Source: Bdellovibrionota bacterium (lineage in GTDB: Bacteria; Bdellovibrionota_C; UBA2361; OMII01). From it: 64,000 nt of DNA. Shown here piece by piece: positions 1 to 25,803 of this stretch (its first letter is position 1; each line of letters starts with the position of its first letter). A program made the translations under genes and the position numbers. The notes below the pieces were generated by a model. That model did no database searches. It had not been told where the DNA came from and was given only the letters and a program-made list of their open reading frames with translations. Where the stretch lies: assembly GCA_044356215.1 (NCBI GenBank), contig JBIKWQ010000003.1, positions 953 to 64,952 on the forward strand, written 5' to 3'.

Positions 1-2345
1 TCCGCGAATACCGGAGGGGATACTCCGATACGAGCCGCCGCGTACTTAAGGTGCACGCGTAGACGTGGGAATAAGAGATCATATCCACGCTCAAAAGCGA
101 GAACTAATCCGAGCGGGCCACGACACAACGCGCGGATCTCGTCGATCTGGTCCGCGCTCACCCGAGACGCCGTAAGCAGACTCTCACGAGCTATAAAGAC
201 CTCTGGCATCAGCACCAGCGACATCCGCTCAATAAGTTCGTCCTCGAGCATAGGAGCCTCATGGGCCTTTAATATGAACTCATCCAAGGCGATAAAGTGG
301 ACGCGCTCAAATGATTCCCTAATAAACCGCACAAAAGTGGGGGGAAGATCGCTGAGCTCCTCGATATTAGATAGATCTTCGTGAATAGCGTTTACTAGTG
401 GCTGCAGTTCCACTCCCGCCAGCAGCAAATCAGCCATTTGAAACGCCTCCGATGAGAGACAGTTCCTAAGAGCATCACGCAGCGTCATGCGTGGATCCGT
501 CAATTCGAAGAAAGCTCTCTCGACCCTATTCCTCTGGTCATAAGTTAAACCACTTAAGAAATCTAAAACTGGGCGATCAAGTTCACCTACATCTGCATCC
601 TGGTCGATTAACTGCGCTAAGCTTACAGCGTCCTCCTCGTCATCCGCGCGACTCTTGTACTCCCACTGCCACACCGTTGGCTCGGGTTCGACTCCGCGAA
701 ATCGCGCTAAGACATCAATAGTTAATGACCAGCGGCCGTTTCCGCCCATATACCTATCGATTAATACGACGCGTCCCTGCTCGCTTAAAGAAGGAGACAC
801 CCGCTCTAATCTTCTCTTTATGACATCTTCCAAATTATCACCAAAGACTATCTGGTAAGCTTGCTGAACCGCCAAACACTCTCTCGGCTCTCGAAAATGG
901 AGTGGGGCTATGATCTCAAATAGATCTCCAGACACCGCGATCCGCTCCGCTATCACAAGCGCCACGCGGCGAGGATCAAATACGCGCCTCGAGATAAAAA
1001 GCCGGGGATCAAGCTCGTACCCGTAAACCTCTTGTAGGGCTCTGTTTGTGGAGTTAAAACGCTCGCTCGATAAGGCATCTACCCTCTCGGCTATTAATTC
1101 AAATGAATTAAGCACTCTGTGATGAATCGACATCCGATCACGCCACATCCGGCGCTTCTTGAAATGCCTTAAGAATGGTCCGATTCCTTGAGTGTGGTCA
1201 CGATCCACGGAATCTCGCGGATCGCTTAATGTGTCCTCGATCTCGTCTAGGTGCGTCTTTGGGAAGAGTATATGATGAATAGTCTCCGCCTCGAGATGTG
1301 GTGACCAGCCCTTTAAAACATCCGCGAGTCGCTCCTGATCAGCCTGAGAGAATATCCTCCTGACATGGGCCTCTAGCCCCTCGTCGCTATCTAAGGCATC
1401 TGGCCCAGCTAATTCAAGATACATCCGCTTAACAAGCGACATCTCCTCTACGCTCCGGCCCAAGAAGAGATATCGTAGCGCCCTCGCGTCATCACGGGCT
1501 CTAAAGGCCTGCGCGCGCTTCTGCTCTACTACCTCATTCTTACCGATACTCTTGCGAGCTGGCGCTTTAGCCTCACTAGTCTGCGCGTTTAAAAGGGCGT
1601 GCGCCTGCTTTGCTAGGCTTTTGAAGGGGATCTTTAAGAATTCATCACGAACAGCGACTAGCTGACTCTCTGTGCAATCAAGTAGGATATCAGCGATTCG
1701 TTGCTCCTTGTCAGCGTGAGGCCCGTTGTAAAGCACCCAAAGACTCTCAGCTACTTTTTCAACATCCATCCCGTGGGCTATCCGAGCGATCCGCTCCTCT
1801 CCTTCATGGCCAACTCGCTTTATGATCTGGTAAGAGATCTCAGGTCGCTCTCCTCGATCTCTAATCGGAGTGTAATAGTGCTCTGTAAAGAAATCGTTCG
1901 CTCGGTCTAGAATCTCCTTGGACTCTCGCGGAGATCTATCGGACAAAACCACATTAAATGCGCTTAAATAAAGATCTATATCAGTTTCGCGGCTCTTCTG
2001 AGCGAGTTGATAGATCTGATGAGCTAAAGCTTCCGCCAACTCTTGATGCTTCGCCTCATACTCTTGGCGCTCTTGGCGCGATCTTCTGCGCGGTGGATCC
2101 TGAGGAACAGGTGGAGCCTTCGCGATCTCTCGGATTCTATCTAGACCACCCTTAACTGAGAGTGGTCGATAGAACTGATCAAAGACCTCTCCTTCATACT
2201 GTAATCTGGCCGCGGAGGCCGCCTCTCGCTCGCGCTCTAAAGCCTCCTCGGCCTCTCTTCTCGCGAGATCTTCCACAGGGCCACTCTTAGGGGCGAGGAT
2301 CCCTTTCTTAAAAACGATCTTCTTGTCGCCTGATCCGTCTACCAT
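1..2345 (-). CDS. large hypothetical protein, N-terminal part (at least 780 aa in window; C-terminus lies beyond the window start); partner of the upstream tandem AAA+ ATPase
   Basis: The reverse-strand frame is open without stops from ATG at 2345-2343 through position 1. A GAGG Shine-Dalgarno lies about 9 nt upstream, and the start is 44 bp after the ATPase stop. My own translation begins MVDGSGDKKIVFKKGILAPKSGPVEDLARREAEEALERE. The ORF is missing from the supplied track because its stop codon is outside the window. The small plus-strand ORFs at 491-2155 sit inside it. I recognised no family. Confidence 0.6.
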   Translation of the reverse strand, partial: MVDGSGDKKIVFKKGILAPKSGPVEDLARREAEEALEREREAASAARLQYEGEVFDQFYRPLSVKGGLDRIREIAKAPPVPQDPPRRRSRQERQEYEAKHQELAEALAHQIYQLAQKSRETDIDLYLSAFNVVLSDRSPRESKEILDRANDFFTEHYYTPIRDRGERPEISYQIIKRVGHEGEERIARIAHGMDVEKVAESLWVLYNGPHADKEQRIADILLDCTESQLVAVRDEFLKIPFKSLAKQAHALLNAQTSEAKAPARKSIGKNEVVEQKRAQAFRARDDARALRYLFLGRSVEEMSLVKRMYLELAGPDALDSDEGLEAHVRRIFSQADQERLADVLKGWSPHLEAETIHHILFPKTHLDEIEDTLSDPRDSVDRDHTQGIGPFLRHFKKRRMWRDRMSIHHRVLNSFELIAERVDALSSERFNSTNRALQEVYGYELDPRLFISRRVFDPRRVALVIAERIAVSGDLFEIIAPLHFREPRECLAVQQAYQIVFGDNLEDVIKRRLERVSPSLSEQGRVVLIDRYMGGNGRWSLTIDVLARFRGVEPEPTVWQWEYKSRADDEEDAVSLAQLIDQDADVGELDRPVLDFLSGLTYDQRNRVERAFFELTDPRMTLRDALRNCLSSEAFQMADLLLAGVELQPLVNAIHEDLSNIEELSDLPPTFVRFIRESFERVHFIALDEFILKAHEAPMLEDELIERMSLVLMPEVFIARESLLTASRVSADQIDEIRALCRGPLGLVLAFERGYDLLFPRLRVHLKYAAARIGVSPPVFA

Positions 2346-2389
2346 TAATTGAAACCTCGTCGCCGCCAGCCAAACGCTCTTCAGTTAAA

Positions 2390-4582
2390 CTAGGCGTACT
2401 CCATTTCCATCCAAGCGCGCTCTCGTCGATCTCTATCGGGATCCTCAACGATATCCTGTAATATTAAACGCCCGAGTCTCGCGTATATTACATCAATCGT
2501 GGCGTTTTTTCCGTCTAGATGGAGTGGATCAAGGAAATCCGGATGGAATCTAAGCATATGATCCATTACCGCTCGATCGTGCTCTGATTTGGCGATCATA
2601 GCCCAAACGTTCTTTCCTACCCAGGCAAAATCCGCTGAATTCCAATCTAGCATCCGTTGAACGTAGTGTCCGATAGAGAGCAATTCCTCTGGAGCTGGTG
2701 GGCGCTCGAATTGATACGTTCCCTGGCTATTACGCATCCTATCAGCTATCCAAACCAAGTTATTAACCAACTGAGGAAGACAGTGTTTAGAGAGTACGCG
2801 CCTCTCAAGGGTTGAATCTAGGTAGCTCATCCGCATCGGATGAACACGTCGTAAGAATGCATCATCTAGTCTGCGATTGAAGTTTTTGGTGAAAATCACC
2901 AGAAGATTATCTACGTTACAGTCTATCGGAGGACGAGATTCCAACCAGATTCGGGCATCTTGGATCGGTCCTAGAAAGAACGTATCGATATGACCATCTA
3001 CTTTATCGATCTCATCTATTAGTAAGATCACCGGCTGATTCTGAGATTTCAAAAAGGCTCGCGACAGGATTCCAAGATTCATCAACTTCTCTTTGGCTTG
3101 CGTCTCCTGGCCCGCCATCGATGACGCGATCGCCAAAGCTGAGGGAACCTCGATCAGATGCGCAGTGTTCATCCCATTGTAACAGCTAAGACACATCAAC
3201 TCCGCGCCCGTCGCTTTAGCCAGGCATTTCGCCAAAAAGCTCTTACCGCAACCAGAGGGTCCCTCAAGGAGGATCGCTCGTACCCTGTCAGATGGAGATG
3301 TTAAAAGTAACGACATCTGAGTAGCTGTAAAGCGCGCGCATTGATATCCAACCGCGGCCAATCGCCGAGACATCTCCTCTGGATCAGAGAACTGAGTGAG
3401 CCCTATCTTTTCGGGCTTATAGGCTCTCCCGCGACGCTTCGCGTCTGGATCATCAATCACACCCTCTAACAGCCACCGACCTAAGCGGGCATAGATCTGC
3501 TCAATCGTCGCGTTTCTGTTGTCTGGCACCAATGGATCGGTGAAATCAGGATGATAACGCAGAAGCTGCTCAAAGACTGTGCGGTCATGCTCAGACTTTG
3601 CCAACATATAGAAGAGATTCTTCCCTACGAAGGCGTAATCGATCAGATCCCAGCTTAAAAGATGTGTTAAATAATGTGCCGCTTTTAACAACTCCTCAGG
3701 AGCCGGCGGCCGCTCGAAAGGATAGCTACCATCTGAGCCGCGCATTAAATCAGCTACGCGAATGAGATTCTCCGCTAATTTTGGCTTACAGTGCGGCGCT
3801 AAAACTCTGCGCTCTAAAGCGGAATCCATGAACTTCATGCGCAACGGATGCACGCGTCGCAGTAGCGCCTCGTTAATTGGGCGCTCGAAGTTCTTGGTGA
3901 ACATGATTAAAAGATTGTCTAAGTTAGCGTCGATCGCCTCACCAGACTCACGCCAAACTCTACCATCTTGAATCGGCCCCAAGAAAAACGTATCGATCGC
4001 CACATCAACTTTATCTAACTCGTCGATCAGCAATATAACCGGCTTCTGTCGCGACATCGCGAAGGCCTTAGAGATCGGCCCAAGATTCATCAAGTCATCG
4101 ACTTTCTGGTCAGAAGCGCGGCCTGTCATCGCGTTTACCATTCCCAGTGTCGACGGCATCTCGATTAAGTGTTGCAGGTTCATCCCCTTGAAACACTGGA
4201 TACACATCAACTCGGCGCCAGTAATCTTGGCTAACGATTTAGCCATGAAGCTCTTACCGCAACCGGATGGTCCCTCTAACAAGATACACTTAACACTGTT
4301 AACTCTGGTGTTGAGCAACAGCGACATCTGAACAGCGTAAAACGGTAAACAGTGATAGCCGACCTCTCCTAACTTAATCTCAAGCTCCTCAGGGGTTCCA
4401 ACGTCCTTAAATCCGACCTTTTCTGGAGCGTAATTAGAGTGGAAATTGGGGTTAACGATCCCAAGCTCGCTACCATCAGTCTTGGGCTCAAGATCATTAG
4501 CCGCGCCGCGATTACGGAACGTAATCTTGCGTTGTGGGGCTCCTGCGGTGCTTTCAGAGTTGTTGTCGTCTTCTAACGCCAT
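2390..4582 (-). CDS. tandem-duplicated AAA+ ATPase (MoxR/CbbQ/NorQ-like AAA_5 type; two complete ATPase units)
   Basis: 730 aa. Two roughly 365-aa halves are clearly homologous to each other. Each half has a Walker A motif (LLEGPSGCGKSF[ML]AK), a Walker B motif (ILLIDE[LI]DKVD) and a sensor region (NLL[IV][MI]FTKNF). The start is ATG at 4582-4580. Confidence 0.8.
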   Translation of the reverse strand: MALEDDNNSESTAGAPQRKITFRNRGAANDLEPKTDGSELGIVNPNFHSNYAPEKVGFKDVGTPEELEIKLGEVGYHCLPFYAVQMSLLLNTRVNSVKCILLEGPSGCGKSFMAKSLAKITGAELMCIQCFKGMNLQHLIEMPSTLGMVNAMTGRASDQKVDDLMNLGPISKAFAMSRQKPVILLIDELDKVDVAIDTFFLGPIQDGRVWRESGEAIDANLDNLLIMFTKNFERPINEALLRRVHPLRMKFMDSALERRVLAPHCKPKLAENLIRVADLMRGSDGSYPFERPPAPEELLKAAHYLTHLLSWDLIDYAFVGKNLFYMLAKSEHDRTVFEQLLRYHPDFTDPLVPDNRNATIEQIYARLGRWLLEGVIDDPDAKRRGRAYKPEKIGLTQFSDPEEMSRRLAAVGYQCARFTATQMSLLLTSPSDRVRAILLEGPSGCGKSFLAKCLAKATGAELMCLSCYNGMNTAHLIEVPSALAIASSMAGQETQAKEKLMNLGILSRAFLKSQNQPVILLIDEIDKVDGHIDTFFLGPIQDARIWLESRPPIDCNVDNLLVIFTKNFNRRLDDAFLRRVHPMRMSYLDSTLERRVLSKHCLPQLVNNLVWIADRMRNSQGTYQFERPPAPEELLSIGHYVQRMLDWNSADFAWVGKNVWAMIAKSEHDRAVMDHMLRFHPDFLDPLHLDGKNATIDVIYARLGRLILQDIVEDPDRDRRERAWMEMEYA

Positions 4583-4613
4583 AATCTTCTTCTTCAGTCC
4601 CTATATGATGTAA

Positions 4614-4630
4614 GTCCACAATAAGTGGAC
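4614..4630. promoter_or_regulatory. palindrome GTCCAC-N5-GTGGAC 32-48 bp upstream of the ATPase start; candidate operator
   Basis: Perfect 6-bp inverted repeat with a 5-bp spacer, read directly from the sequence. It lies in the promoter region of the minus-strand ATPase gene. Confidence 0.25.
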
Positions 4631-4763
4631 AAATGCTTCTTATTACTTTGCAGGGCGGGATATATATCTGTAATTATTGAACTTATCTTTTAGTTGGCGC
4701 ATAACTACAACTCCCTTTCATTTTAGCTGAAGCGAACAGACTCGTTCTTGAGATGATATCATC

Positions 4764-5108
4764 ATGACTGATAATCCAAATACCGCGCGTACAGACCGCC
4801 CCTACCGTTCTAAGAGAACCCAGAGGGGAGAGGCGGAGCTAATGACCTTTGGTATAGTGGTAGTGCTAGCCATTCTGTTCTCAGGCACCGTTTGGGTTCT
4901 TAATTGGGTCAAGCACAACAAGCACTCAGAGCGCGAAGCGCGAAAGCTTGCCGCTATCCTTGAGAAGAAGAAAAGTCAATTCTCAGGGCGTCGCGACCCC
5001 GCTGAGTATCTAGTCTTCTGCGACAAACCAGCGTGGTCTCTTCTTCAGACTAAATACAACTGCGAAGTCCTTCCAGAATCGTATGGGGAGCTGTTTTTGA
5101 TGCCCTAG
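4764..5108 (+). CDS. small hypothetical membrane protein (one predicted TM helix)
   Basis: 114-aa ORF with a hydrophobic stretch FGIVVVLAILFSGTVWVLNWV. It is followed within a few bp by a GC hairpin (GCTCGG..CCGAGC). I recognised no homology, so the coding status is uncertain. Confidence 0.3.
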   Translation: MTDNPNTARTDRPYRSKRTQRGEAELMTFGIVVVLAILFSGTVWVLNWVKHNKHSEREARKLAAILEKKKSQFSGRRDPAEYLVFCDKPAWSLLQTKYNCEVLPESYGELFLMP

Positions 5109-5202
5109 GCTCGGCTCCGAGCGTCAAAAGCTCGGTATCTCGATGTTTTGTTAGTAACGGCGCGTTCGCGCTGTTACCGATAGGGTGTCGCAGTTCTTTA
5201 TC

Positions 5203-5288
5203 ACCACAGAGGACGCAGAGGACACAGAGAACGGCCATTTTATCGGCAATTATAAGGTTTTCTCTGTGTCCTCTGCGTCCTCTGTGGT
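5203..5288. repeat. perfect 29-bp inverted repeat (ACCACAGAGGACGCAGAGGACACAGAGAA / reverse complement) around a 27-nt loop; large hairpin or cruciform-capable element
   Basis: Arms at 5203-5231 and 5260-5288 are exact reverse complements. No confident CDS overlaps them. A 29-mer inverted repeat is far beyond chance expectation in 64 kb. Confidence 0.6.
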
Positions 5289-5389
5289 AAAAAATATTTT
5301 ACTAATTGTCTCAGCAACTTACCAAAAACACTGCGACGCCCTGTGTTACCGAGCAAATAATCGCTTAGGCGAGGTCTTGCCTCGGCGCT

Positions 5390-5431
5390 AAGGCAAACAT
5401 CGCCGCAGCGATGTTTTGCCTTTCTTTATTC
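5390..5431 (+). terminator. rho-independent terminator (about 13-bp stem, 4-nt loop, then a TCTTTATT U-rich tail)
   Basis: The hairpin is AAGGCAAACATCGC-cgca-GCGATGTTTTGCCTT followed by tttctttatt. On the minus strand it has no U-tail, so it should act in the plus direction. It sits in a region with no confident CDS. Confidence 0.5.
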
Positions 5432-6152
5432 TAGCCCAGAATCTTCGATGCTGCTCTCCGCATTCTCAGCCGCACCCAGAGCCACCGGCGGAGGGGGGTC
5501 CGCAATCGGGACTTGATTCGCTACCGTCCCCTGCTCATGTGGTGTTATCACGACCAACACAATCGGCAGGCACGGTAAGTCCACCAACGCTGTCGCGTTT
5601 CGCTGCTCTACATAATTTGAGATTAACCACTGGAAATCGGGGTCGCCCAGTTCTTGAGAAAAAATAGCTCTAGCCATATATAACGCTCCTCCATGATCGC
5701 CGCGCCGAATCAACTACCTCCAAACGCGACAAGCGCTCACAACGTTTAACCACCTACTCTTCCACTAATCGTCGTTAGGCGGTATTTTGCGACACCAATC
5801 CTTGTGTCATGCGCCAAAAATTTACTTCTAAAACCAGGCTTAGAGGATCCGATCCCGCCGCCTTAAAGAGTTATTCGGCCTCAGTGCCTCCGCACTTAAG
5901 CTATTAGAAGTTCTAGCGGAAAATACCAAAACAGCAGAACCACCTGTAACCATTACACAAAATAGGTAGTATGGAAGATTCCAGTAGATAATAATTCTGC
6001 TTTAACCACGTTTAAATTACCGTGGCGCTGTGGGGCCATTTCTCCACTTTTCCAAGGGATAGATTGCATCAAACACCCCTAACCCTTGAGAAATATCCAT
6101 CAGAACCGTACACTGACCGTCCTCAGAAAAATGCCCTAAATCAAAGAAGTAA

Positions 6153-7481
6153 ATGCCCAGGAAAGATATTGAACCAGCAGTAGAGAGCGGAAACAACAAG
6201 GACCGTAGCTCACCGGCTATTTACGAGGCTGAACAGCATACGATCAAGAAGGGCGATATTGACGAAGATGCCCGCAAGGTTGTTTACCGATTGCAGCGCG
6301 CTGGATTCAAAGCATACATAGTCGGTGGTGGCGTTCGCGACATCCTCCTTGGTAAAACACCCAAAGACTTTGATATCTCAACTGACGCGACTCCGCGGCA
6401 GATAAAAGCTCTTTTTAGAAACTGTCGCATTATCGGTCGCCGCTTTAAATTAGCTCACATATTCTTCGGCAGCGGAAAGATCCTTGAGGTATCAACTTTC
6501 CGCGATACCGCAGATATTCCAGAGCCCGCCGAACCTGATACGAGCGCGGGGACAGTCGCGACTCCGATGGTTACAAACGATAATATTTACGGGACTGAGC
6601 AGACCGATGCCTTACGCAGAGATCTAACGATAAACGGTCTATTTCTTGATGTATCGACGATGCAGATCATTGATTACGTTGATGGGATGCTGGATCTACA
6701 ACAGGGAACTATTCGAATCATCGGCGACCCAGACCTTAGGTTTAGCGAAGATCCTGTTCGTATGCTCCGCGCTGTTCGACACTCCGCTAGAAATGGATTT
6801 CACATCGAGCCTGGTTGCTGGTCCTCTATCTTGAGGAACTCTCAATTGATCGCGCAGTGCTCACAGGTGCGCGTATTTGATGAGCTACGCAAAGATGTAA
6901 GCTCCGGATGTTTCTTAACGATCCTCTCGCTGCTTGGGGAAACAGGTCTACTTGAGTACATCCTACCCGAGCTATTAGAGAACAATAGTCGCTTACTTTC
7001 CGCTGAAAGTGATTGTAGCGTTTGTCTCGAAAAGGTCGATGATTTAGTGAATGAGGGCGGAGAGGTTTCAGCTACCACCGTCTTCGCTATTTTAGCGATG
7101 TTCATTGCGGGGGATTCGATCTGGCTGCGTGACCTTGCTGAATCTATTCCTAGCGCGCCTGATCTCGGTCAGAGATTAGGCGCGTGCTTCACACGGCTAA
7201 CAGTGCCGCGCAAAGAGCGTGAGCGGATTCAGATCCTATTAAGTATGTGGGGACGACTGCGAGATGCGTCTCCGAAATCTTTCAAGCCTGGCTCCTACAA
7301 GCGCTCGGCCCTTCTGCCCGACTTAATATCACTAGTCGAGATTACCCAGTTTACTCGAGAGGATTCCCAGAGACTGAACTTGTTAAAGGAGATGGCCGAT
7401 AGAGAATCGGATCAGCATAATCATTCCGAATACGAACGGAAATCAACCCCGGCAAGACGTAGGCAAAGCGGACCTAGATAG
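6153..7481 (+). CDS. pcnB: poly(A) polymerase I (class II nucleotidyltransferase)
   Basis: It carries the [17 protein letters not shown] nucleotidyltransferase motif and the PcnB-diagnostic [20 protein letters not shown] segment. The length is 442 aa. Confidence 0.8.
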
Positions 7482-24471: not shown

Positions 24472-25803
24472 ATGCTCCAACATATTGATATTACTAGAAC
24501 AGCATACCAAAAACTTGACACATGGCTAGAATCTAAATTTCGCAAGCCAATTCTTGTTCGAGGAGCCAGGCAGGTTGGAAAGTCTTTTACTGTAAGAACA
24601 TGGGGGCAAAAGAAAGCTGCCGCAGGTCAGTTTTTGGAGATTAATTTCGAAGAGCAACCCTCTTTAAAGTCTATATTTACCAAAGATCTAGTCATCCCAC
24701 GCATCCTGACTGAGCTGCAATTAGCTACAGGTATAAACCTTGAGAAGCCTGGAAGTATCCTTTTTATGGATGAGATCCAAGAGTGCCACGAAGCATTAAT
24801 GGCACTCAGATACTTTGCTGAGAAATATCCACAACTGCCGGTCCTCGCAGCAGGCTCGTTAGTAGATTTTGTTCTCAGTGAAATAGGATTTCCTGTGGGG
24901 CGCATAGATAACCTTGCGTTAACCCCGCTTTCTTTCTTTGAATTTCTCGCGGCCATTGGTAAACAGAAGCAGGTCGCGGAGCTTGCTACTGTATCTATTA
25001 CAACCGCCCTTCCTGAAGCATTACTACAAAGTCTCTTTTTAGATCTTCGATTGTATTTTCGCGTGGGGGGGATGCCTGAAGCTATAGCAGTCTATGCTAG
25101 TACTCACGACTTGAGTGAAGTTAGCAGGGTGCACTCTCGACTTATCAGAAACTACAGAGATGATTTTGCGAAGTATGCCAAGCAAAATGATTGGGAAGCG
25201 CTCAACATAGTATTTGATCGTCTCCCAGCCATGATTGGCCGTAACCGAATCAACTACTCTAAGTTTGATGCTCATATGCGCGGTGAAAAGATTCGTAGAG
25301 CGTTGACGCTACTTTCAACGGCAGGACTAGTTCACCGTGTTATTTCTTCTCAGGCGAACCAACCACCACTAAATGCTGAGAGTGACCCCCGTTTTTTTAA
25401 ACTGTTACTACTCGATATTGGATTGATGCAGGCTATGTTAGGTTTTGATTGGCGAAAAGTACGTCCTGATATGCCTGTTAATGAGATCCATGACGGTGCC
25501 TTTGCTGAGCAGTTTGTTGGCCAAGAGTTAATCTGTTCTGGAAGTAGTGACTCATTTTATCAACCTCATTACTGGTATCGCGGCGTAAAGGGTTCAGAGG
25601 CAGAGGTTGATTACGTCATTGTGCACAAAGGTTGTGTTACACCTGTTGAAGTTAAGTCTGGCTCGCGTGGTACACTGAAAAGTCTGGCGCTGTATCAAGA
25701 GAAATTCACTCCAGCGCAGTGCTTAGTACTTTCCATGCAGAACAGTGTTGAGCTTGAACGGATTAGATGGGTACCATTATTCTTAGCGAGTCGGCTGCTT
25801 TGA
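24472..25803 (+). CDS. AAA-superfamily ATPase (COG1373 / DUF4143-type)
   Basis: It has an N-terminal P-loop (ILVRGARQVGKSF), a Walker B (ILFMDEIQ), and a C-terminal region typical of this ATPase family. The length is 443 aa. Confidence 0.75.
   Translation: MLQHIDITRTAYQKLDTWLESKFRKPILVRGARQVGKSFTVRTWGQKKAAAGQFLEINFEEQPSLKSIFTKDLVIPRILTELQLATGINLEKPGSILFMDEIQECHEALMALRYFAEKYPQLPVLAAGSLVDFVLSEIGFPVGRIDNLALTPLSFFEFLAAIGKQKQVAELATVSITTALPEALLQSLFLDLRLYFRVGGMPEAIAVYASTHDLSEVSRVHSRLIRNYRDDFAKYAKQNDWEALNIVFDRLPAMIGRNRINYSKFDAHMRGEKIRRALTLLSTAGLVHRVISSQANQPPLNAESDPRFFKLLLLDIGLMQAMLGFDWRKVRPDMPVNEIHDGAFAEQFVGQELICSGSSDSFYQPHYWYRGVKGSEAEVDYVIVHKGCVTPVEVKSGSRGTLKSLALYQEKFTPAQCLVLSMQNSVELERIRWVPLFLASRLL

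Follow-up and report, generated by a model that had tools for sequence, protein, structure and literature searches.

The window analyzed here, a stretch of 64,000 nucleotides from a Bdellovibrionota bacterium (contig JBIKWQ010000003.1), opens with two genes on the reverse strand, one encoding a tandem AAA+ ATPase and the other a large partner protein that continues beyond the window edge (Table 1). Numerous full-length homologues show that both ORFs are real genes rather than chance reading frames. Also present in the window are MetH, tryptophan-pathway, and RNR genes; Rfam and tRNA scans returned nothing within it.

Table 1. Features of the ATPase–partner locus, with positions counted from the first letter of the window.
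Feature	Position	Strand	Basis or conservation
Partner gene, first 781 of 1054 codons, cut by window edge	1..2345	(-)	
Partner stretch best matching Pfam Annexin, aa 213-246	1608..1709	(-)	PF00191
Partner basic N-terminal motif DKKIVFKKG, aa 7-15	2301..2327	(-)	K8, K9, and I10 nearly invariant in 48 homologues
44-nt spacer with GAGG ribosome-binding site, no terminator	2346..2389	(-)	Sequence, terminator scan
Tandem AAA+ ATPase gene, 730 aa, ATG start, stop codon included	2390..4582	(-)	ORF list, translation
C-terminal AAA+ unit, aa 389-730	2393..3418	(-)	Half-versus-half alignment; single-unit orthologues 59-67% identical
Walker B, unit 2, ILLIDE, aa 519-524	3011..3028	(-)	D523, E524 invariant
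Walker A, unit 2, GPSGCGKS, aa 441-448	3239..3262	(-)	G441, P442, G444, C445, G446, K447, S448 invariant
N-terminal AAA+ unit, aa 50-388	3419..4435	(-)	Aligned to C-terminal unit, 59% identity; NJ tree
Walker B, unit 1, ILLIDE, aa 183-188	4019..4036	(-)	D187, E188 invariant
Walker A, unit 1, GPSGCGKS, aa 104-111	4250..4273	(-)	G104, P105, G107, C108, G109, K110 invariant in 35 homologues
ATPase basic N-terminal motif QRKITFRNR, aa 17-25, disordered tail	4508..4534	(-)	pLDDT; motif variants in relatives

The duplicated ATPase and its place among AAA+ proteins

The sequence-only reading had described a 730-aa ORF carrying two complete AAA+ units, and the ORF list, two GPSGCGKS P-loops in the translation, and the alignment of the two halves (59% identity over 336 aa, E 1e-154, BLASTP) all bear this out. 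Pfam AAA_5 and AAA each match the protein in two stretches, and the Walker A/B, sensor-1, and arginine-finger residues are intact in both units. Judged from its sequence, the ATPase arose by genuine tandem duplication and consists of ~340-aa units arranged head-to-tail, both with intact motifs. In a neighbor-joining tree, the N-terminal units of all tandem ATPases formed one clade, and the C-terminal units clustered with single-unit orthologues. Because such orthologues exist, the duplication represents a derived and unusual architecture, as had been suspected. Homologues of the ATPase are 59–100% identical. The AlphaFold2 model (pLDDT 79.7, pTM 0.55) falls below pLDDT 50 at residues 1–31, the region of the basic motif, which occurs in close homologues as the variants RKITFR, KKFSFR, and KFKFR.

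The earlier description of the units as "MoxR/CbbQ/NorQ-like" survives only in its broad sense. Pfam AAA_5 (PF07728) scores 75.1 bits against a cutoff of 22, in two stretches, but this match is not discriminating because the generic AAA model (PF00004) does almost as well, with 71 bits. None of the curated MoxR, CbbQ, and NorQ models came close to its own cutoff, GvpN (TIGR02640) reached 32.5 of the required 266.8 bits, and CbbQ_C was not among the best 25 of 53 Pfam matches. The best-scoring curated model was the NCBIfam MadB family (NF047784, E 4.6e-35). It covers most of a unit, but membership was rejected at 121.2 bits against a cutoff of 475. We found no role for a MadB AAA ATPase in the literature, where the name refers to unrelated subjects (a malonyl-ACP decarboxylase, a lantibiotic dehydratase, a Phycomyces gene, and MADB disease).

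DSSP assignment of the AlphaFold2 model placed short strands at ~208–218, ahead of the sensor-1 strand, together with an insertion at 141–167, both mirrored in unit 2. Read from the secondary-structure string without superposition, this predicted pre-sensor-1 β-hairpin and helix-2 insert are compatible with the H2-insert clade. Homologues are labeled "MoxR-like ATPase" by JGI, and among PDB sequences midasin matches best. Foldseek searches with the whole model returned only multi-AAA proteins, at low TM scores, with midasin/Rea1, dynein, p97, and ClpA/B at the top, and so said little as to clade. Like the ATPase, these proteins carry multiple AAA modules in each chain; unlike them, it has only two modules, 59% identical and both active-looking, and lacks a linker, stalk, MIDAS, or N-domain. 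Overall, the unit of this divergent AAA+ ATPase appears to fall nearest the AAA_5 / MoxR-dynein-midasin group.

An annexin-repeat partner

As the sequence-only reading had stated, a second ORF of at least 780 aa begins 44 nt after the ATPase gene and runs off the window; 781 codons are open from the ATG at 2345. Completing it, as that reading had proposed, gave a protein of 1054 aa, recovered from contigs that encode an identical ATPase. The view that the partner belongs to no recognized family must be revised, since it is an annexin-repeat protein. PF00191 scores 23.8 bits on the full-length partner against a cutoff of 25, and five orthologues (P0123, P0129, P0144, P0151, and P0190) score 25.2–35.5 bits, with different repeats matched. 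The protein comprises 58 helices, corresponding to ~11–12 five-helix units over 1054 aa, and contains no β-sheet. The annexin-type five-helix repeat fold of ~70 aa is present, and the structural matches are annexins. A C-terminal VWA/MIDAS domain, which the sequence-only reading had suggested looking for, is missing: neither Pfam nor NCBIfam gave a VWA match to the complete protein. Since the partner is all-α and the VWA fold is α/β, the proposed analogy to CbbQ-CbbO and NorQ-NorD fails on the defining feature of the partner.

The partner also departs from annexins in several respects. Its global arrangement differs, with TM scores against annexins of only 0.08–0.26, and its ~11–12 repeats compare with the usual 4, the 8 of annexin VI, and the 1 to few of described bacterial annexins. 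Given this repeat number and the low global TM, a four- or eight-repeat disc-shaped annexin core was rejected. The GxGT Ca2+ loops of annexins are absent: the type II pattern [KR]G.G[TS][DNE] occurs in 0 of 48 partner family members, and G.GT is missing from 44 of the 48. No signal peptide or transmembrane segment was found. The partner is a soluble, acidic, all-helical protein of ~11–12 degenerate annexin-type repeats without canonical Ca2+ loops, and its roughly one dozen repeats form the largest annexin-type array of which we are aware. The family is an orphan, with 65 matches among 1.84 billion representatives. At the same loci, partner identity ranges from 45 to 100% and ATPase identity from 79 to 100%, indicating that the partner evolves much faster. 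The basic motif is nonetheless kept, as KKIVIKK, in the divergently arranged, 23%-identical partners at L027/L028.

Conservation of the gene pair

The GAGG lies ~11 nt before the partner ATG, and the spacing between the two genes varies from –44 to +87 nt across 31 related loci, as measured from our own first-start ORF calls. Scanning detected no terminator-like site between the genes, nor did it yield a convincing promoter ahead of the ATPase gene, and promoter and terminator predictions showed no excess over shuffled sequence. A palindrome upstream of the ATPase (GTCCAC-N5-GTGGAC) was dismissed because four close relatives do not preserve it.

The partner adjoins the ATPase in co-directional (31), divergent (3), and convergent (2) loci, all from uncultured Bdellovibrionota, and, wherever the contig extends far enough, is its neighbor at all close-clade loci. 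Flanking genes differ between loci as the pair remains together. At L001, the partner is closely followed downstream by a PIN/PhdYeFM toxin-antitoxin pair. The linked ATPase/large-partner module posited from sequence is thereby upheld, its adjacency persisting through divergent and convergent rearrangements. The two genes are a genuine, evolutionarily linked module and probably form a conserved two-gene operon in an uncultured, mostly freshwater Bdellovibrionota clade.

Each component can also occur without the other nearby. No partner was present within 6 kb at 11 tandem-ATPase loci with adequate flanks or at 26 single-unit loci, and searching around these ATPases with a broadened partner profile revealed none that had been missed. 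Conversely, no ATPase lies near the distant partner relatives at L084, L087, and L088, which have several kb of flank, or near that at L090, for which the upstream side was covered. The pairing is therefore not obligatory in gene order. Divergent tandem ATPases at L043-45 and L047 begin with a fused 611-aa ORF, which was considered as a partner candidate and discarded: it has no Pfam match, and hhalign showed it not to be homologous to the partner (probability 0.1).

A possible annexin-repeat remodeling machine

The best explanation overall, which we advance tentatively but consider quite possibly correct, is that the linked ATPase and annexin-repeat partner work together, with a ring-shaped remodeler acting with or on a scaffold. 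The ATPase would assemble as a ring, and three tandem chains would probably form a pseudo-hexamer, given that no linker separates the units, which are complete and near-identical copies, and that single-unit orthologues exist. A stacked double ring is also possible because the relative orientation of the AAA units is uncertain in the model (pTM 0.55). Driven by ATP, the ring could act on the annexin-repeat protein by remodeling, assembling, or disassembling it, or could itself be targeted by that protein. By analogy with annexins, the site of action would most plausibly be a membrane or other surface, an expectation weakened by the absence of canonical annexin Ca2+ and membrane-binding loops. 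Of the two, the ATPase may be the older core component, slow to evolve and able in other lineages to work with no partner gene beside it, and the annexin-repeat protein may be a lineage-specific, fast-evolving client or adaptor in the place of the VWA protein found in classical MoxR systems.

Those systems (CbbQ-CbbO, NorQ-NorD, and RavA-ViaA) offer one point of comparison, and a classical chaperone pair, in which a C-terminal VWA/MIDAS domain of the partner bridges the ATPase to a metalloenzyme client, would account for several observations. As in the known pairs, an AAA_5-type ATPase gene precedes a large partner gene and both proteins are soluble and cytoplasmic; the predicted hairpin and helix-2 insertion are compatible with the clade, AAA_5 is the top Pfam match, and homologues bear the JGI label. 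Known MoxR members have one AAA module, however, where tandem ~340-aa units are found here. The complete partner is an all-helical, annexin-like solenoid with no VWA/MIDAS, no conserved metalloenzyme client gene is linked to the pair, and scores against curated MoxR-type models (as for GvpN) are far below cutoff. We consider this explanation very improbable. A different possibility is that the two proteins are independent neighbors, the ATPase serving a housekeeping role, the annexin-repeat protein acting separately, and the operon reflecting a lineage-specific accident of gene order. The 11 tandem and 26 single-unit loci without an adjacent partner are consistent with this view, as are the unrelated housekeeping contexts of partner-less ATPases (Wza/Wzc, Liv permeases, NtrC, LpxA/LpxI) and the location of ATPase-less partner relatives beside rnc-der or ABC_tran_2 genes. 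Simple inherited synteny, however, does not predict adjacency in three orientations with partners only 23% identical, and the tight or overlapping spacing, the lack of a terminator, the persistence of the pair amid varying flanks, and the N-terminal motif common to linked pairs also argue against it. Chance neighborhood thus seems unlikely, if still a serious contender.

Bdellovibrionota is a largely predatory phylum, and the partner could instead be an exported predation or host-interaction effector acting at prey membranes, with the ATPase as an unfoldase or secretion chaperone dedicated to it and the basic motif as an export or engagement tag. The partner's rapid evolution and the conserved motif in the disordered N-terminal tails of both proteins would fit such a role. 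Yet the partner lacks a signal peptide and transmembrane segments, the neighborhood contains no conserved secretion-system genes, the motif is also carried by the ATPase itself, and the sole effector-type match (RisK1, E 0.15) is noise; the MetH, tryptophan-pathway, and RNR genes are, moreover, typical of a self-sufficient chromosome. These considerations make export improbable. Least of all do the data suggest an anti-phage or other conflict system composed of an AAA+ ATPase and a large effector, which strikes us as hardly credible. The PADLOC matches that hint at one (TRIP13, 59 bits; PDC-M37B, 46 bits) are weak and confined to generic AAA segments, the partner's best E value is 0.0087, and PADLOC identified no defense system and no full-length match of both components. 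The toxin-antitoxin pair at L001 could be taken as a sign of conflict, but the core-genome synteny is conserved, inheritance across the clade is vertical, and the ATPase is unusually conserved (59–100%), unlike a variable defense island.

Returning to the ring remodeler, a more specific version would be a membrane-remodeling or repair machine in which a Ca2+-independent annexin-repeat scaffold coats or bridges membranes, a tandem MoxR-like pseudo-hexamer assembles or strips this scaffold, and the basic N-terminal tail serves as an engagement tag. Eukaryotic membrane repair by annexins, ESCRT-III, and Vps4 offers a conceptual analogy, as it too combines annexin-fold membrane binders with a scaffold-recycling AAA+ ATPase; unlike that pathway, the locus contains no ESCRT-III-like genes, and the ATPase probably does not belong to the classical (Vps4) clade. 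We regard this version as distinctly unlikely. If true, bacteria would have a functional counterpart to annexin/ESCRT-Vps4 repair, the annexin fold would for the first time be seen as the client of an AAA+ protein, and a MoxR-class motor would for the first time be found to use a non-VWA partner.

A 2014 survey of bacterial annexins reported no general neighborhood clue, and its text makes no mention of Bdellovibrio (PMC3894181). Our literature search found no bacterial precedent for pairing an annexin with a MoxR or other AAA+ protein. Almost all understanding of MoxR-class ATPases comes from their VWA partners, and a conserved pairing with annexin repeats would broaden how this class recruits clients. 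We know of no established function for bacterial annexins; the linked ATPase would provide the first testable functional handle on them. Finally, the occurrence of single-unit and tandem orthologues in one phylum offers a natural experiment on the covalent duplication of an AAA+ ring.

The tandem ATPase and its surroundings

The ORF list, the translation (730 aa, with two GPSGCGKS P-loops), the spacer and a partner frame that stays open for 781 codons from its ATG to the window edge confirmed the two-gene module proposed in the sequence-only reading. The N- and C-terminal halves of the ATPase aligned over 336 residues at 59% identity (BLASTP, E 1e-154), upholding the proposal of two complete AAA units; the protein consists of a complete ~340-aa unit genuinely duplicated head to tail, with practically no linker.

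Features of the window, with strand and source or description
Feature	Position	Strand	Source or description
Tandem AAA+ ATPase ORF	2390..4582	-	ORF list, 730 aa
Intergenic spacer	between ATPase stop codon and partner ATG at 2345	-	sequence; 44 nt with GAGG
Partner basic motif DKKIVFKKG	2301-2327	-	disordered N-terminal tail
ATPase basic motif QRKITFRNR	4508-4534	-	disordered N-terminal tail
Perfect palindrome GTCCAC-N5-GTGGAC	4583-4640	-	~30 nt 5' of ATPase start codon
114-aa ORF	4764-5108	+	divergent from ATPase
Region up to CCA/poly(A)-polymerase gene	5109-6152		~1 kb; solely short ORFs (60-95 aa)
AAA_14 + DUF4143 ATPase gene	24472-25803	+	stand-alone; in GC dip (0.44 vs ~0.48)

In an alignment of 35 homologues, Walker A (G104-K110, G441-S448), Walker B (D187/E188, D523/E524), the sensor-1 asparagine (N231, N567) and an RR pair (R242-243, R578-579) are invariant in both units, so that, judged by these residues, both modules look catalytically competent. 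Sequence-based family assignment is weak. Pfam AAA_5 (75 bits) and generic AAA (71 bits) each matched two stretches, the best NCBIfam model, 'MadB family AAA-type ATPase', scored 121 bits, far under its 475-bit cutoff, and the GvpN, CdvC and PAN models reached only 30-40 bits. Matches to sequences of solved structures, midasin best, were limited to the surroundings of Walker A. The suggested MoxR/CbbQ/NorQ-like label is only partly borne out: AAA_5 outscores generic AAA by little, and curated cutoffs are missed by far. In the AF2 model (pLDDT 79.7, pTM 0.55), each unit has an insertion separating strand 2 from helix 2 and, right ahead of the sensor-1 strand, a hairpin of short strands, a pattern typical of the H2-insert/PS1-hairpin clade, which includes MoxR, midasin and dynein. 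Because this pattern was read solely from the DSSP string of the predicted model, we regard membership of that clade as likely, not proven. Foldseek with the whole model returned multi-AAA proteins (dynein, p97, Rea1, ClpA) at low TM, telling little more than that there are two AAA modules.

The 114-aa ORF had no Pfam match and occupies the same place in the nearest relatives (L001-L006, L049); the adjoining ~1 kb had no match in an Rfam scan. In four relatives with ATPases ~92% identical, the palindrome is not conserved. In the contig matching the window (L001), the partner gene is followed immediately on its 3' side by a PIN / PhdYeFM toxin-antitoxin pair (6181-6802), just past the window's left edge. 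The AAA_14 + DUF4143 gene is perhaps an insertion of mobile or conflict-related origin.

Annexin-type repeats in the partner

Two contigs with an identical ATPase completed the partner, truncated in the window, to 1054 aa. It had no notable match among NCBIfam, PADLOC or PDB sequences, and its lone Pfam match, Annexin, was sub-threshold (23.8 bits vs cutoff 25). A 48-homologue profile searched against 1.84 billion representative proteins gave only 65 matches, all 930-1110 aa or fragments thereof; the partner is a narrow orphan family. Its confident AF2 model (pLDDT 87.1, pTM 0.81) is all-helical, with 58 helices and zero sheet, which excludes the alpha/beta VWA fold that the sequence-only reading proposed to look for in the C-terminus.

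Three kinds of comparison show the repeats to be annexin-type; the sequence-only reading had recognised no family. Annexins or annexin fusion constructs account for 46 of the top 50 Foldseek matches in the PDB, the top match being annexin VI, with its eight repeats (E 1.2e-5, 729 aligned columns); five orthologues pass the Pfam Annexin gathering score (25.2-35.5 bits), at differing positions; and hhalign of family-alignment segments detects ~70-aa internal repeats (285-358 vs 588-656, 92.8%; 592-730 vs 736-848, 78%; 735-806 vs 812-878, 68%). Going by the helix list, we put the number of five-helix units at about 11-12. The canonical Ca2+ loop, [KR]GxG[TS][DNE], occurs in 0 of 48 family members, the partner is acidic (pI 5.4), and hydropathy indicated no TM segments in either protein. 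The partner shares the annexin repeat fold but lacks the Ca2+ loops and four-repeat core; we class it as a divergent, giant annexin-repeat protein. A 2014 survey found no general neighbourhood clue to the function of bacterial annexins, and a text search of it found no mention of Bdellovibrio (PMC3894181). The literature searched gave no precedent for a bacterial annexin-AAA+ pair.

Linkage and evolution of the two genes

One genome per GTDB species was scanned for the RPPAPEELL motif, a search blind to relatives without it. This gave 78 loci, many from freshwater lakes and all in MAGs of uncultured organisms that bear the label Bdellovibrionota, Bdellovibrionales or Oligoflexia or older 'delta/proteobacterium' names. 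The ORFs of these loci were then searched with HMMs. Within the close clade, whose ATPases are at least 79% identical to that of the window, the partner lies directly downstream and co-directional in 31/31 sufficiently long contigs, with spacers of -44 to +87 nt (first-start ORF calls) and flanking genes that differ by locus (flagellin, HAD hydrolase, CDF transporter, glutathione peroxidase, CCA/poly(A) polymerase, LptB). At three loci with ATPases 64-66% identical (L027, L028, L031), a full-length partner homologue (23% identical, hhalign probability 100) lies upstream on the opposite strand, and the distant partner relatives P0232 and P0260 face a tandem AAA gene convergently. Linkage kept across three orientations argues for a functional connection over inherited synteny.

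Not every locus has the pair. No partner occurs within 6 kb at 11 tandem-ATPase loci with adequate flanks or at 26 single-unit loci (370-460 aa), and the neighbours of these partner-less ATPases are various housekeeping genes (Wza/Wzc, Liv permeases, NtrC, LpxA/LpxI). Conversely, no ATPase lies near distant partner relatives at L084, L087 and L088 (several kb of flank) or L090 (upstream side only). MAG GCA_012514925.1 carries both genes on separate contigs (L048, L088). At L084 (2065-5775; also L085, 31-3741), a 1236-aa bona fide annexin (PF00191, 65.5 bits; weak C-terminal JAB-like match) is encoded immediately upstream of the distant partner homologue P0262, with no ATPase within 6 kb. A 611-aa ORF without Pfam match (L043, 3776-5611; also L044, L045, L047) overlaps the start codon of a divergent tandem ATPase (~52% identical); rejected as a homologue of the annexin-repeat partner, it may be an alternative partner.

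In an NJ tree of AAA units, all N-units form one clade and C-units cluster with single-unit proteins, which are 59-67% identical to the C-unit of the window ATPase; this fits a single old duplication. The single-unit orthologues (L055-L080, e.g. L061 5794-7065), 370-460 aa long with N-tails that vary, are commonly flanked by Wza/Wzc-type polysaccharide-export genes on one side and Liv-type ABC permease genes on the other. Tandem ATPases L033, L039 and L051 share this Wzc/Liv synteny, which suggests duplication in place first and association with the partner later. Within the close clade the ATPase evolves slowly (79-100% identity) and the partner fast (45-100% over the same set).

Proposed action of the pair

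What we observe is that both AAA modules are intact, that the partner has annexin repeats and no VWA, that the two genes are linked in a conserved operon and that the proteins are soluble; the mechanism we infer. The ATPase would assemble as a ring, most simply a pseudo-hexamer of three tandem chains, since its units are near-identical, complete, linker-free copies and orthologues with one unit presumably form homo-oligomers. A stacked double ring is a possible alternative. This ring would remodel, assemble or disassemble the partner, or be targeted by it, likely, by analogy with annexins, at a membrane or similar surface, although the missing Ca2+ loops weaken the membrane part. The similar short basic motifs in both N-terminal tails could be docking or engagement peptides. 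In the linked partners of L027/L028, which are 23% identical, the partner motif survives as KKIVIKK; it is mostly absent from unlinked partner relatives. The L081 ATPase carries KINFQK, and distant ATPases that lack a partner and have long acidic tails show RLDF/KIDF motifs instead.

A ring ATPase acting on or with its operon-linked annexin-repeat partner is an explanation we hold tentatively, a little short of an even chance. That the genes are independent neighbours, against which the three orientations speak, seems unlikely; a partner acting as effector, with the ATPase as its dedicated chaperone, is more doubtful still. MoxR-type ATPase-plus-partner modules are closest in working to this pair, but a VWA partner is their defining feature and their curated cutoffs are not reached; we therefore do not file it as CbbQ/NorQ/RavA-type, and the CbbQ-CbbO/NorQ-NorD comparison falls on the VWA feature. 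A classical MoxR-VWA chaperone pair, contradicted by the absent VWA, is very improbable, and a defence system, which lacks PADLOC support and would not be expected from a locus in core-genome synteny, marginally more so. The pair is a real, conserved module, which would belong with the AAA+ remodellers that have an accessory protein; all of its members are from uncultured organisms, and its interest lies in two well-known protein superfamilies linked in a way that we did not find described.
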